Below the pieces are notes generated by a model that worked only from the letters and a program-made list of their open reading frames with translations, did no database searches and was not told where the DNA came from. 6,502 nt of DNA from a virus (Duplodnaviria; Heunggongvirae; Uroviricota; Caudoviricetes). The first letter of the stretch is position 1; each line of letters starts with the position of its first letter. Shown one piece after another: positions 1 to 5,673 of the stretch. The position numbers and the translations under genes are program-made. The DNA lies in the IMG/VR virus record IMGVR_UViG_2778261250_000006; one strand, given 5' to 3'.

Positions 1-792
1 GAAAAACGAGTATTTTTAGTCATCCTGTTTACCTCTTTCTCAGGAAGTTTAGTCTCCAGGATTCCCGGGGCGGTTCAATCTCCAAAATTGAGCGATGACG
101 CTCCAGCGACAGGCACCGGTTGTTTAACAATTACGGATGTAATGGCAGCGCAGGGGATGGTGCAGTCGAAAGCACCACTTGGGTTGGCCTTATTTCTGGC
201 AAAAGTTGGTGTTCAGGACCCTCAGTTTGCGATTGAAGGCCTGCTAAATTACGCGATGGCACTGGATAACCCGACATTGAACAAATTGAGTGAAGAAATC
301 CGGTTACAGATTATTCCTTACCTCGTGAGTTTTGCCTTTGCTGATTACTCCAGGTCTGCGGCAAGTAAGGCTCGCTGTGAGCATTGTTCAGGTACGGGAT
401 TTTATAATGTATTGCGCGAAGTGGTGAAACACTACAGACGCGGGGAATCTGTAATCAAGGAAGAATGGGTGAAGGAACTATGTCAGCATTGCCATGGTAA
501 GGGCGAAGCCAGCACAGCGTGCAGAGGGTGTAAGGGTAAAGGGATTGTTCTGGATGAAAAAAGAACCCGGTTTCATGGCGTACCGGTATATAAGATTTGT
601 GGGCGTTGTAATGGAAACCGGTTTAGTCGTTTACCGACCACGCTGGCACGACGTCATGTCCAGAAGCTGGTACCAGACCTGACCGATTATCAGTGGTATA
701 AGGGGTATGCGGACGTCATTGGTAAACTGGTAACAAAGTGCTGGCAGGAAGAAGCATACGCGGAAGCGCAATTGAGGAAGGTGACGAGATAA
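1..792 (+). CDS. Phage late-gene antitermination protein Q; probably 5'-partial (frame open to window start, first in-window start is TTG at 88)
   Basis: ORF 88..792 in the track begins with TTG and the same frame has no stop back to position 1. Translation contains four Cys-rich repeats (CEHCSGTG, CQHCHGKG, CRGCKGKG, CGRCNGNR). Position immediately upstream of a candidate late promoter, csp morons and a lysis cassette matches Q in lambdoid phages. Confidence 0.8.
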   Translation, partial: EKRVFLVILFTSFSGSLVSRIPGAVQSPKLSDDAPATGTGCLTITDVMAAQGMVQSKAPLGLALFLAKVGVQDPQFAIEGLLNYAMALDNPTLNKLSEEIRLQIIPYLVSFAFADYSRSAASKARCEHCSGTGFYNVLREVVKHYRRGESVIKEEWVKELCQHCHGKGEASTACRGCKGKGIVLDEKRTRFHGVPVYKICGRCNGNRFSRLPTTLARRHVQKLVPDLTDYQWYKGYADVIGKLVTKCWQEEAYAEAQLRKVTR

Positions 793-928: not shown

Positions 929-1213
929 AAATGGGGCAATGGTAATGTTGAATCTCATCCCGGGACTCATGTCTGTTAACTTATTATTTAGCTGGTGACT
1001 TGGTTATTTGCCTGATGTTTAAAATGTTTTCTTCCAGTACAATGTCCCTAAACACAATGAGTCTGCTTATTATATTATTAGCAGAGCTATTACGGCCAAA
1101 GTACAGCATAAGCTTTTAAAGCCAATCAACCAGTCATCAAGACAGACGGGGTTATTCATAAAAACTCTCCATGTGTGATCCGATGGGGCCTGAAATTAAA
1201 GCTTTAATATAGC

Positions 1214-1426
1214 TCATGAAAGGTAAACATTGGCAGCTGAAGGGCCACGCAGACCATTTATCCGGCAAAATTCCACGCGTAATCCGGTGGTAATTTCTTC
1301 TGCATCGCGGAGATTGAGCGCTGAAACATGAAGCTGGACATCGATACGACCATCGGATGGGGTGATAAGACCCTTGCCGCTTTTGCCGTCAAAGGTTTTG
1401 ACAATTCCTGTCATTTTACGGGACAA
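1214..1426 (-). CDS. cspF: Cold-shock-domain protein, CspF/CspH-like (70 aa)
   Basis: Translation [26 protein letters not shown]...[13 protein letters not shown] has the cold-shock-domain hallmarks with the divergent CspF/CspH-type core (KTFD, GLITP). It is divergently arranged with cspB, as in the Qin prophage. Confidence 0.88.
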
Positions 1427-1530: not shown

Positions 1531-1726
1531 TTGCTTCATATGTTCAACTATGCGTTAATGATTGCGTCGGTTTGAAGAACAGACGATATACGAAGTAGTT
1601 TACTAAAGCAGTTCTCATTTCAGGTGTTATTCACTTATTCCTTCTTTGAGTCTCTCCAATTAAGTACGAAGTCGTTTCTGTTATGCAAACCATTTATGCC
1701 GAAAGGCTCAAGTTAAGGAATGTAGA
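1531..1726 (+). promoter_or_regulatory. cspB promoter and long 5' leader (-35 TTGCTT 1531-1536, -10 GTTAAT 1554-1559, cold-box-like GGTTTGAAGAACAGACG about 1569-1585, GCCGAAAGGC hairpin 1697-1706)
   Basis: Hexamers with 17-nt spacing. Predicted leader is about 160 nt, matching the long leaders of cold-inducible csp genes. The GCCGAAAGGC element upstream of the ribosome-binding site matches the cspA leader as I recall it. Confidence 0.5.
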
Positions 1727-1942
1727 ATGTCAAATAAAATGACTGGTTTAGTAAAATGGTTTAACGCTGATAAAGGTTTCGGCTTTATTTCTCCTGTTGA
1801 TGGTAGTAAAGATGTGTTTGTGCATTTTTCTGCGATTCAGAATGATAATTATCGAACCTTATTTGAAGGTCAAAAGGTTACCTTCTCTATAGAGAGTGGT
1901 GCTAAAGGTCCTGCAGCAGCAAATGTCATCATTACTGATTAA
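1727..1942 (+). CDS. cspB: Major cold-shock protein CspB (71 aa)
   Basis: [38 protein letters not shown]... carries the RNP1-like (KGFGFI) and RNP2-like (VFVHF) motifs; AAGGAA ribosome-binding site upstream of ATG 1727. Confidence 0.93.
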
Positions 1943-2053
1943 AATTCATCGCTCGTCTGTATACGATAACGAAGAAGGCTGATGCCTGAGTAGAGATACG
2001 GACAGAGTAGTGAATATTGGATCTCTTTAATAAAAAGTAAGGAGGTCCAATAC

Positions 2054-2220: not shown

Positions 2221-2250
2221 CTCAAACCCGCTCAGGCGGGTTTTTTATTA
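2221..2250. terminator. Intrinsic terminator, likely bidirectional (between cspB and the convergent minus-strand zinc-ribbon ORF)
   Basis: AAA-CCCGC(2227-2231)-TCAG-GCGGG(2236-2240)-TTTTTTATTAT: 5-bp GC stem extendable by A-T pairs, with a T-run on the plus strand and an A-run giving a U-run on the minus strand. Confidence 0.6.
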
Positions 2251-2305: not shown

Positions 2306-2476
2306 TCAGGCTACAGCTTTAAGATTTGTCTGGAATACTTTGTTGCAATGAGGGCAGATCAAAAGGGCACCTTTTTGTACTCTTGAAAAACTGTGTTCTG
2401 ACTCTTGGGTGCAGTTTGGGCAGGAACATTTAACGAGATAATTACGGCGTGATTTTGAGTTTTTACGTTCTGACAT
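2306..2476 (-). CDS. Small zinc-ribbon protein (CPNC...CPHC), 56 aa from the internal ATG; the track ORF extends to 2527
   Basis: Minus-strand ORF MSERKNSKSRRNYLVKCSCPNCTQESEHSFSRVQKGALLICPHCNKVF... has two CxxC pairs about 17 residues apart and a basic N-terminus. A GGAAAAG ribosome-binding site precedes the ATG at 2476. The gene is convergent with cspB and followed by the 2221-2250 hairpin. Confidence 0.5.
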   Translation of the reverse strand: MSERKNSKSRRNYLVKCSCPNCTQESEHSFSRVQKGALLICPHCNKVFQTNLKAVA

Positions 2477-2695
2477 AGGCTTTTCCTGTATAAATGGCCG
2501 TATACAGTACACTAAATATGAAAACATTTCTCGTATTATTATTTTATATATGACTTTCTTTCAAAATAATTACCCACATTTTTAATGTGTATGTTTTTTT
2601 AGCGCCGTTGAGAACAACGTGTGCTGTCAAAACTACCCCGTAGACTCCGATCTTTTCAAACATATTGCACCATCCGTGTACATCGGGGTGAGGAT

Positions 2696-2911
2696 ATGAA
2701 ATCAATGGATAAGTTAACAACAGGTGTTGCCTATGGCACATCGGCGGGTAATGCTGGTTTCTGGGCATTGCAGTTACTCGATAAAGTAACTCCGTCACAG
2801 TGGGCTGCAATCGGTGTGCTGGGTAGCCTGGTTTTTGGCCTGCTGACGTATCTGACAAATCTTTATTTCAAGATTAAAGAAGACAGGCGTAAGGCTGCGA
2901 GAGGAGAGTAA
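2696..2911 (+). CDS. essQ: Class II holin / pinholin, phage 21 S-like (71 aa), dual-start motif MKSMDK
   Basis: Ribosome-binding site GGGGTGAGGA before ATG 2696, second in-frame ATG at 2705 (Met1-Lys-Ser-Met4, the S21 71/68 antiholin/holin arrangement). Two predicted transmembrane segments ([18 protein letters not shown] and [23 protein letters not shown]) and a charged C-terminus [11 protein letters not shown]. The track ORF start at 2621 is an upstream extension. Confidence 0.88.
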
Positions 2912-3227: not shown

Positions 3228-4251
<1,024 letters not shown>

Positions 4252-4433: not shown

Positions 4434-4613
4434 TTGCTATGGGTGGTTAATCATGCGTTAATGGTGTTCTGGTTTGTTACAAATTTATCTGAAGCAGTCA
4501 TTGTTATAATTTTATTATTTGTACCTCTTGAGATTTCCTTGTTGGTTTTTCTCTCTGATATTTTTTTTCGGACCATTCTGCCCAAGGGCTAATTTCTTCA
4601 AAAGGTAATAATT
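4434..4613 (+). promoter_or_regulatory. cspI promoter and 5' leader (-35 TTGCTA 4434-4439, -10 GTTAAT 4457-4462, cold-box-like GGTTTGTTACAAA about 4471-4485, GCCCAAGGGC hairpin 4581-4590)
   Basis: Same architecture and near-identical TGCGTTAATG -10 region as the cspB promoter at 1551-1560. Predicted leader is about 144 nt with an AT-rich upstream region. Confidence 0.5.
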
Positions 4614-4826
4614 ATGTCTAACAAAATGACTGGCTTAGTGAAATGGTTTAACCCTGAAAAAGGTTTTGGTTTCATCACGCCGAAAGATGGCAGCAAAGAT
4701 GTGTTTGTCCATTTCTCAGCAATTCAGAGCAACGATTTCAAAACATTAACTGAGAATCAGGAAGTTGAATTTGGTATTGAGAACGGACCTAAAGGTCCTG
4801 CCGCTGTTCATGTAGTGGCGCTTTGA
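4614..4826 (+). CDS. cspI: Cold-shock protein CspI-like (70 aa)
   Basis: [70 protein letters not shown]: cold-shock domain with both RNP motifs; AAAAGG ribosome-binding site upstream. Confidence 0.93.
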
Positions 4827-4857
4827 GGTAGACAATATTACAAACCATATTCACTTT

Positions 4858-5025
4858 AGATGCCCGTGTTGTCATGGTTCCCAGTATAGAACATCATCTT
4901 TTGATGTTTCTGACATGAATCCTTTCGGGGCAAAATGTATCTTTTGTAAATCAATGATGATTACATTTGATAATATTTCACAATACTTAAATGCCAGCCG
5001 TCTGTCGTTGGATTTAAAAAAGTGA
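4858..5025 (+). CDS. Ogr/Delta-like zinc-finger small protein; no canonical in-frame start upstream of the first CxxC (possible pseudogene or non-canonical initiation)
   Basis: Frame open from 4816 to TGA 5023-5025 encodes ...RCPCCHGSQYRTSSFDVSDMNPFGAKCIFCKSMMITFDNISQYL.... The CPxC, RTS, CxxC and ITF/QY pattern resembles the phage P2 Ogr zinc-finger activator as recalled. The only in-frame ATG is at 4915, inside the finger; ATG 4860 is out of frame. A terminator follows directly. Confidence 0.4.
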   Translation, partial: RCPCCHGSQYRTSSFDVSDMNPFGAKCIFCKSMMITFDNISQYLNASRLSLDLKK

Positions 5026-5028
5026 AAA

Positions 5029-5054
5029 TGAAGGCTCCTTCGGGAGCTTTTTTG
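5029..5054 (+). terminator. Intrinsic terminator after the cspI / zinc-finger unit
   Basis: GGCTCC-TTCG-GGAGCT hairpin (UUCG-type tetraloop) at about 5031-5049, followed by TTTTTTG. Confidence 0.7.
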
Positions 5055-5097
5055 CTTGGTGTCTATTCGATGGATACTCACATACTACGGTAACATC

Positions 5098-5328: not shown

Positions 5329-5499
5329 TTTGATGCTATTGCATTGATAATTCAGGAAAATTCTCTTTGTCTGTTTGTGTAAAATTTAGACTATCGTATG
5401 TTGATTATTGCGATGTTTCATCTTATCTTTTACACGTTTGCACCATATAATCGACTTACTGTGTAACTGGAAAGTCATAACAGACTAAAAGAGGAAATG

Positions 5500-5673
5500 A
5501 TGAATATTGAAAACTTAAAAACAAAAGCAGAAGCAGATATTTCTGAATATATAACAAAAAAAATTATTGAACTTAAGAAAAAGACCGGGAAAGAAGTTAC
5601 CAGTATTCAGTTTACCGCACGGGAAAAAATGACGGGTCTTGAAAGCTATGATGTCAAGATTAATTTAATCTGA
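5500..5673 (+). CDS. gnsB: GnsA/GnsB-family small protein (57 aa)
   Basis: Not in the ORF track (short). GAGGA at 5491-5495 and ATG 5500 (an ATG also at 5497). Translation MNIENLKTKAEADISEYITKKIIELKKKTGKEVTSIQFTAREKMTGLESYDVKINLI matches the GnsA/GnsB pattern as recalled (TAREKMTGLESYDVKI); stop TGA 5671-5673. A perfect -10 TATAAT lies at 5446-5451. Confidence 0.75.
   Translation: MNIENLKTKAEADISEYITKKIIELKKKTGKEVTSIQFTAREKMTGLESYDVKINLI

Follow-up and report, generated by a model that had tools for sequence, protein, structure and literature searches.

Two small cysteine-rich proteins encoded beside cold-shock genes of E. coli K-12, YnfU and YnfQ, are already known, as are the families to which they belong. 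Ribosome profiling in which initiation complexes are stalled (Ribo-RET) led to the discovery of YnfU, and SPA tagging confirmed it as a protein; its tagged form was the most abundant among the newly found small proteins, and the gene gave good expression in rich medium at 37 °C (10.1101/511675). Weaver et al. described two CPXC zinc knuckles in YnfU and noted that threading matched it to PA0128 (10.1101/511675), and the gene was later re-detected by PIRT-Seq (PMC12350097). No reported function for ynfU was found in the literature, and no report on its expression under cold shock was found in the searchable literature. Moreover, ynfU is missing from published lists of csp-co-regulated genes (PMC11228462, PMC13058169, PMC11728337).

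Expression data have also been published for ynfQ and for ymcF, which follows the chromosomal cspG gene. The induction of cspI, ynfQ and ynfN together, by 6.5-, 5.9- and 5.8-fold, was reported in one study (PMC11228462), a joint rise of ymcF, ymcE, cspG, cspI and cspB in another (PMC13058169), and a joint fall of cspG, cspH, cspI, ymcF and ynfQ in a third (PMC11728337), while SPA-tagged YnfR was strongly induced by cold shock (PMC6001520). There is thus good evidence that the cspI side of the locus is one cold-inducible transcript.

Gene order of the window and coding status of ynfU and ynfQ

The window, that is, the whole stretch of DNA analysed here (6.5 kb; 6,502 nucleotides), matched many E. 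coli chromosomes, as well as the K-12 annotation, with 100% identity. It is the reverse complement of about 1,636.9-1,643.4 kb of the K-12 MG1655 chromosome, within the Qin cryptic prophage (Table 1). Rfam found a cspA-type mRNA thermoregulator (RF01766, gathering score 78 bits) at both cspB and cspI, so that "cold-inducible csp", the designation chosen in an earlier sequence-only reading of this DNA, is a fair label for the two genes. At cspI, the match extends 27 nt beyond the stop codon and covers the start of ynfQ. Documented cold induction is limited to the cspI-ynfQ-ynfR side of the window, and a terminator-like hairpin (5034-5047) lies inside the ynfR ORF.

Table 1. Features of the window, in coordinates of the window, with the basis of each assignment
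Feature	Position	Strand	Basis
quuQ/ydfT	40-792	+	K-12 annotation
ynfS	1070-1159	-	K-12 annotation
cspF, divergent from cspB	1214..1426	-	annotation
cspA-type mRNA thermoregulator over cspB 5′ UTR and CDS	1566..1958	+	Rfam RF01766, 158.8 bits
cspB, cold-shock CspA-family gene	1727..1942	+	annotation, ORF list
GC-rich hairpin AAACCCGCtcagGCGGGTTT between convergent cspB and ynfU	2224..2243	.	terminator scan
ynfU (b4776) CDS, 56 aa, predicted C4 zinc ribbon	2306..2476	-	RefSeq annotation, Pfam, NCBIfam
ynfU putative 5′ leader/promoter region, non-coding	2477..2527	-	extension unconserved; upstream block conserved
essQ	2696-2911	+	K-12 annotation
ydfR, rrrQ, rzpQ with embedded rzoQ	between essQ and cspI		K-12 annotation
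cspA-type mRNA thermoregulator of cspI	4468..4853	+	Rfam RF01766, 110.9 bits
cspI, cold-shock CspA-family gene	4614..4826	+	annotation
ynfQ (b4724) CDS, 62 aa, YmcF-like predicted zinc ribbon	4837..5025	+	annotation, translation, Pfam
ynfR, 21-aa small protein, directly 3′ of ynfQ	5028..5093	+	annotation
ynfN	between ynfR and gnsB		K-12 annotation
gnsB	5497-5673	+	K-12 annotation
ydfO, ynfO	after gnsB	both -	K-12 annotation

The sequence-only reading had proposed that each cold-inducible csp gene of the window is paired with a small zinc-ribbon ORF, and it had placed the first of these ORFs at 2306-2527 on the minus strand. A frame of 73 aa does exist there, carrying CPNC (C19-C22, in the numbering of the mature protein) and CPHC (C41-C44) with 18 residues between them, but the coding sequence occupies only its downstream part. 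This is ynfU, annotated as "putative zinc-binding protein YnfU", whose 56-aa product (MSERKNSKSRRNYLVKCSCPNCTQESEHSFSRVQKGALLICPHCNKVFQTNLKAVA) has the N-terminus MSERK and starts at the second methionine of the frame, at position 2476. The same start methionine (MS-RK) was found in the homologues of 64 distinct loci. The 73-aa form was rejected, given that the annotation is shorter and that the 17-codon N-terminal extension was unconserved in an alignment of 25 YnfU sequences. These 17 codons overlap a promoter-like block upstream of the gene that was kept in more than 20 species.

In the same alignment, P20, C22, S26, E27, H28, S29, F30, K35, P42 and C44 were invariant, and C17, C19 and C41 were at least 90% conserved; YnfU itself carries the conserved cysteine set (C19, C22, C41 and C44, plus C17) and the SEHSF-R-QKG core. 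Profile searches, suggested as a check by the sequence-only reading, placed the protein well above the cut-offs of its families: Pfam PF23499 was matched over profile positions 1-49 of 49 (107.3 bits, cut-off 27, E 3.5e-31), and NCBIfam NF038384 at 79.4 bits (cut-off 36). The ynfU leader has a Shine-Dalgarno sequence, AGGA, 7 nt 5′ of the ATG, and a –10-like block (GTGTATGGT) that is kept from species to species; its K-12 version, GTGTACTGT, lies at about 2504-2512. A sigma-70 site at 2564..2535 was considered as the ynfU promoter and rejected, as it was unconserved and the conserved block is nearer to the ATG. No consensus RNA structure or thermosensor was found in the ynfU leader by RNAalifold across 24 species, and the Rfam scan found no cspA-like leader on this gene.

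The second zinc-ribbon ORF had been described as a plus-strand CPCC...CIFC frame that follows cspI, and this was confirmed. The open frame spans 4816 to 5025, has 21 residues between the knuckles and corresponds to ynfQ, which encodes a YmcF-like "cold shock small protein". It starts with ATT, 10 nt 3′ of the cspI stop codon and with GAGG 8 nt upstream; because of this start, a standard ORF list gives only a 36-aa fragment of it. The spacing of 10 nt, together with AUU as the start codon, suggests reinitiation after cspI, and ynfQ is most likely translated by termination-reinitiation coupling to that gene. The YmcF-like profile, Pfam PF23641, matched YnfQ at positions 1-61 of 62 (109.8 bits, cut-off 27, E 7.5e-32). 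As in a YmcF-like gene proper, ynfQ lies directly 3′ of a CspA-family gene and is co-expressed with it. Across species, dN/dS was 0.088 for YnfU and 0.094 for the YmcF-like proteins, which indicates strong purifying selection on both. Since each has a Pfam family of its own and is under such selection, and since the YnfU protein has been detected, ynfU and ynfQ are genuinely coding genes and not chance ORFs.

It had also been claimed that the CPNC...CPHC protein converges on cspB and shares its terminator. The annotation bears out the convergence, the two genes being 363 nt apart on opposite strands. As for the terminator, the scan found a single strong intrinsic-terminator hairpin between the genes, which is a good terminator for cspB, being followed by a T-run, but a weaker one for ynfU. 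Only on the plus strand does this hairpin pass the scan rule, as the tail on the minus strand, TTTGAGATTG, makes a weak U-tract. The equivalent hairpins of Raoultella and Klebsiella, which have both an A-tract and a T-tract, are fully symmetrical, bidirectional terminators.

Relationship between YnfU and YnfQ

From the similar layout of the two proteins, the sequence-only reading had suggested that a unit of csp and zinc-ribbon gene may have been duplicated; cspB-ynfU and cspI-ynfQ would then be two copies of one ancestral unit and YnfU and YnfQ diverged paralogues. The similarity on which this was based does exist. Both proteins are about 60 aa long, with a CPxC knuckle, a gap of 18-21 residues and a CxxC knuckle, the genes each adjoin a csp gene with a cspA thermoregulator, and both proteins match the NCBIfam model NF047912 (ECs_2282_CxxC), albeit with scores well under its cut-off (E 0.068 and 0.0026, respectively). 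However, the shared CxxC-N18-21-CxxC layout is a generic zinc-ribbon pattern, and the pairwise comparison that had been proposed as a check gave no similarity: BLASTP of YnfU against YnfQ returned no alignment at E <= 100, and hhalign of the 25-sequence YnfU alignment against a 26-sequence YmcF alignment gave a probability of 1.4% over 7 columns, located at one CPxC knuckle. The two proteins fall into separate Pfam families, and their genes are placed differently with respect to csp, ynfQ being co-directional at 10 nt and ynfU convergent at 363 nt. As judged from these comparisons, YnfU and YnfQ are unrelated protein families with no detectable homology.

The real duplicates, according to DNA identity, are others: cspI-ynfQ with cspG-ymcF, and the divergent pair cspF/cspB with cspH/cspG. 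The cspI-ynfQ segment was 82% identical to the chromosomal cspG-ymcF over 540 nt, a stretch that takes in the 10-nt spacer and the ATT start. YmcF (b4723 in K-12) has the same CPCC...CIFC motif as YnfQ; the C-terminal 20 residues of the two proteins diverge, and the genes that follow are different, namely ynfR-ynfN-gnsB after ynfQ and ymcE-gnsA after ymcF. The cspF/cspB pair was 77% identical to cspH/cspG in an alignment that ended at the csp stop codon. Past that point, the DNA 3′ of cspB gave no alignment with the ymcF/ynfQ region; no ymcF remnant was found downstream of cspB and no ynfU remnant in the K-12 cspG locus. This break, at the point up to which the flanking csp pairs align, argues against paralogy. 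Furthermore, Kluyvera, Enterobacter and Shimwellia have ynfU and a ymcF-like gene together at one csp gene, and genes that flank the same csp gene in several genera are companions rather than alternates. The paralogy of YnfU and YnfQ is essentially refuted at the sequence level, and a common ancestral unit is regarded as extremely improbable.

Linkage to csp genes across genomes and its possible meaning

Both zinc-ribbon genes co-occur with csp genes in other genomes too. In one scan of species-representative genomes, which yielded 80 YnfU loci, a CspA-family gene was found within 1.2 kb of YnfU at 58 of them. The convergent layout of Qin was present at 40 of the 80, with gaps of 93-414 nt; 10 had only a co-directional downstream cspF-like gene, and 13 had a csp gene upstream of YnfU. 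A YmcF-like gene was located within 1.2 kb at 15 loci and a YnfN-like gene nearby at 23, while Qin-like Q or lysis genes occurred at only 10. The csp gene adjoining YnfU carried RF01766 at or above the gathering score in 15 of the 17 loci tested. Given the nine csp paralogues in the 4.6 Mb of E. coli K-12, chance proximity of YnfU to a csp gene would be about 0.5%.

YmcF-like genes were found 10-11 nt after a CspA-family gene in E. coli (cspG-ymcF and cspI-ynfQ), Salmonella, Dickeya and a Morganella phage, where the order is Q, csp, ymcF-like; in Klebsiella, the gap to csp is 435 nt. A metagenome scan with the YmcF alignment returned only near-identical copies from E. coli prophages and added no diversity. 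In several genera, YnfU and a YmcF-like gene stand next to each other, in divergent orientation, at a single csp gene. One recurrent chromosomal order has cspF and cspB diverging, ynfU facing cspB, and then a ymcF-like and a ynfN-like gene pointing away from ynfU; this triad of csp, ynfU and ymcF was seen in Kluyvera, Enterobacter and, with a variant order, Shimwellia. In the phage PHB10, a ynfU-cspB-cspF block stands beside an integrase. Neither csp nor ymcF nor ynfN was found near YnfU at 16 of the 80 loci, where the neighbours include GST-tautomerase, HSP20 and fliE, and in a Klebsiella phage YnfU adjoins the holin without csp. The family is small, with 40 matches at E <= 0.001 among 1.84 billion representatives in an exhaustive profile search. 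Its most distant relatives adjoin lld or MFS genes and not csp, and therefore the csp linkage is not family-wide.

Taken as a whole, it is probable that YnfU and YnfQ represent two unrelated, annotated zinc-ribbon families, with ynfQ as a cistron of cspI, ynfU independent, and both accessory to a csp island. In such an arrangement, ynfQ would be the downstream cistron of a cold-inducible cspI-ynfQ-ynfR-ynfN transcript, and the whole cspI-ynfQ unit is a paralogue of the chromosomal cspG-ymcF. The ynfU gene would be transcribed separately, having a conserved promoter-like block and a Shine-Dalgarno sequence of its own, running head-on to cspB and ending at the same hairpin. The YnfU and YmcF-like families would be recurrent accessories of an enterobacterial cold-inducible csp island, which may move as a block among chromosomes, prophage late regions and integrative elements and in which, where both are present, ynfU would face the csp gene and ymcF would lie at its side in divergent orientation. 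YmcF and YnfQ would be made together with their own csp gene, and YnfU is made at 37 °C as well. Each of them may be a micro-protein, stabilised by zinc, whose binding target in the Csp RNA-chaperone circuit is RNA, the ribosome or another protein; in the case of YnfU, the basic N-terminus, the invariant SEHSF-RVQKG surface between the knuckles and the synteny suggest that such a binding role is the most likely one.

A different explanation would be that ynfU is a small gene of selfish or neutral character, or else a moron whose function has nothing to do with cold or Csp proteins (e.g., in phage-host interaction), and that it stands beside cspB only because cspF-cspB-ynfU is inherited and transferred as one short block. 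The csp-less loci and the distant relatives suggest that the linkage may indeed reflect inheritance or block transfer of one ancestral arrangement and not function, and the holin-associated copy of the Klebsiella phage points in the same direction. The contexts of the block vary, from a place between Q and the holin in Qin to the vicinity of the integrase in PHB10 and to chromosomes; in E. coli, ynfU is accessory (1,651 of 5,426 complete genomes) and travels with the Qin-like region; and the gene appears to have a promoter of its own and is expressed at 37 °C. Nevertheless, the linkage to csp outlives several rearrangements across about 14 genera, in arrangements that include a convergent cspB-like gene, a co-directional cspF-like gene, an upstream csp gene, and a divergent ymcF-like gene or cspI-ynfQ operon. 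The partner is specifically the thermoregulator-bearing, cold-inducible type of csp, and YnfU is under strong purifying selection, all of which makes a mere passenger somewhat unlikely, even if it is the most serious of the alternatives.

The convergence of ynfU and cspB also raises the possibility that the ynfU unit works mainly at the RNA level, with read-through over the shared hairpin producing antisense RNA or interference. Antitermination in the cold is established for CspA-family proteins, and read-through might come about in this way or by Q-dependent late transcription, in the path of which ynfU lies antisense, between quuQ and essQ. The single hairpin between the convergent genes and the number of loci that keep the convergent layout would agree with such a switch. 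Yet YnfU is highly conserved at the protein level and accumulates, which argues that ynfU is not merely a transcription unit; in addition, many loci are without a convergent partner and the intergenic hairpins are unconserved between genera, so we consider this quite improbable. A more ambitious proposal, which at present seems doubtful, is that YnfU and YmcF/YnfQ are dedicated partners of the cold-inducible CspA-family RNA chaperones, forming a mobile "cold-shock island" in which csp and ynfU face each other and ymcF and ynfN lead away, under the control of AUU/AUC starts and shared terminators. If this were true, the near-universal AUU/AUC start of the ymcF type would tie translation to csp coupling or to initiation-factor status, and Csp-dependent melting of a shared bidirectional csp/ynfU terminator in the cold would lead to mutual antisense transcription.

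Returning to the reading of two unrelated accessory families, it adds no new element to the genome, as both genes are annotated in K-12 and their families are curated. What is new is that the synteny of YnfU with cold-inducible csp genes, and with YmcF, extends across genera, which constitutes a modest, testable lead. YnfU is among the best-expressed recently discovered small proteins of E. coli, and its tie to csp across about 14 enterobacterial genera would point to low-temperature RNA or ribosome biology rather than to phage functions. That the ymcF family conserves a start other than AUG provides a second, small lead, into translational coupling.

Predicted fold and comparison with known zinc ribbons

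The AF2 models, of moderate confidence, place the two knuckles of YnfU (pLDDT 72, pTM 0.44) and of YnfQ (pLDDT 71, pTM 0.50) on beta hairpins, with strands flanking both knuckles; YnfQ is given a C-terminal helix at residues 44-59 in addition. From its CPxC knuckles and the modelled ribbon, YnfU is predicted to bind zinc, and its N-terminus is basic (RKNSKSRRN). PDB sequence and Foldseek searches with both proteins returned generic zinc ribbons, none of them significant (no Foldseek match at E <= 0.001), and PHROGs gave no meaningful family for either. For YnfQ, the weak structural echoes were to TFIIE, NrdR and ribosomal zinc ribbons.

Among the described proteins, the best PDB match of the YnfU profile was the DNL zinc finger of Tim15/Zim17/Hep1 (PF05180; 2e2z, E 0.012), an escort of mitochondrial Hsp70. 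Tim15 and YnfU have in common the pattern C-x2-C-x3-S-x-H-x-x-S-[KR]...KG-x-x-L-I-x-C-P-x-C across the whole ribbon. However, the alignment covers the ribbon only, the score of YnfU against PF05180 (13.5 bits) is below the cut-off of 27, the DNL segment that defines this family is absent from the YnfU consensus, and the DNL lineage is eukaryotic and organellar. The top Foldseek matches of YnfU were ribosome- or RNA-bound zinc ribbons, such as eL42/L44e and the archaeal HVO_2753-like zinc fingers, which are similar to it in size and fold class (probability 0.66 for the HVO_2753-like proteins, TM about 0.43-0.47). There is a local sequence echo, CP.C...EHS.S..KG, with this group, but its matches are non-significant (E 0.03-0.8; 0.028 for eL42/L44e) and HVO_2753 has two zinc sites. 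The N-terminal zinc ribbon of PhnA/YjdM (PF08274; PA0128, PDB 2akl) resembles YnfU with a Pfam E value of 1.3e-4 and a PDB E value of 0.52, although the score of 22.4 bits is below the cut-off of 30.8 and YnfU is without the C-terminal YjdM domain. It is with its own family (PF23499, NF038384) that the agreement is complete, comprising a full-length match, all the conserved cysteines, the SEHSF-RVQKG core, and the same position and length.

Start codon of ynfQ-type genes and the hairpin within ynfR

The ynfQ gene and its K-12 paralogue ymcF share ATT as the start codon, and no canonical start is available in frame as a substitute in the E. coli YmcF-like genes. The comparison of 23 distinct YmcF-like loci at the position eight codons before the first cysteine revealed ATT or ATC in most genera, namely Escherichia, Citrobacter, Salmonella, Kluyvera, Yokenella, Dickeya, Shimwellia, Scandinavium and Enterobacter. 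Among these 23 loci, Klebsiella, Atlantibacter and one Kluyvera were alone in having an ATG at this codon or at the following one. The preservation of a non-AUG start within a cold-shock operon is unusual.

Downstream of ynfQ, a terminator-like hairpin falls inside the cold-induced 21-codon ynfR ORF, which crosses it completely. This leaves two options, read-through of the hairpin or competition between the terminator and the ORF.

Coordinates of the features discussed (window positions unless another locus is named)
Feature	Position	Details
QuuQ CxxC motifs (Q-type antiterminator)	88-792	CEHCSGTG, CQHCHGKG, CRGCKGKG, CGRCNGN
Unannotated ORF, MKQWLAYLAKS, with its Shine-Dalgarno sequence	2040-2089	11 codons; ATG start; within the long cspB 3′ region
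Conserved block upstream of ynfU	about 2497-2545	minus strand; also in L013-L086, upstream of position 4001
ynfQ start codon	4837-4839	ATT
ymcF start codon (K-12)	L172 2185-2187	ATT
ynfR ORF	5028-5093	
Terminator-like hairpin	5034-5047	GGCTCCTTCGGGAGC, then T6; 9 nt downstream of ynfQ stop

Surroundings of ynfU and cspB

The block upstream of ynfU, composed of AAT.A...CAAGCAA, a gap of ~17 nt and GTGTATGGT, with ~35 nt left to the ynfU ATG, was kept in more than 20 species regardless of which gene adjoined upstream. Its –35-like portion matched σ70 poorly, and the block could be a regulator site. On the other side of ynfU, the short ORF 3′ of cspB is preceded by a near-perfect Shine-Dalgarno sequence (TAAGGAGGT) placed 7 nt upstream of its ATG; reading through the Kluyvera locus L078 revealed no counterpart.

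In Kosakonia, ynfU without an adjoining csp gene neighbored either an HSP20/IbpA-like small heat-shock gene, in two orientations, or fliE-fliF (observation drawn from L032, L037 and L171 of Kosakonia, and from L052, L054, L056 and L072). Additional RNA elements were located near YnfU/csp islands at L062 2717-2781, L035 3740-3869 and L004 1820-2021; a FourU RNA thermometer (66.9 bits) was found near the island of Enterobacter sp. ENT03, and the sRNA STnc100 near those of two loci.

Gene names and further cysteine-rich proteins

The RefSeq ynfQ differs from the ynfQ of VanOrsdel et al. 2018, a 37-aa ORF at 1632890-1633003, between ydfJ and ydfK (PMC6001520 Table 1), and literature searches on this name mix two distinct genes. 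In the gene table of a second paper, ynfT opens a Qin gene cluster whose range also starts at 1632890, and this common coordinate suggests that ynfT may be the present-day name of the 37-aa ORF.

NCBIfam NF047912 (ECs_2282, putative zinc-binding prophage proteins) was matched below its threshold by YnfU (E 0.068) and also by YnfQ (E 0.0026). The four CxxC motifs of QuuQ make it a third cysteine-rich protein of the window, and these motifs resemble zinc-finger repeats of the DnaJ type.
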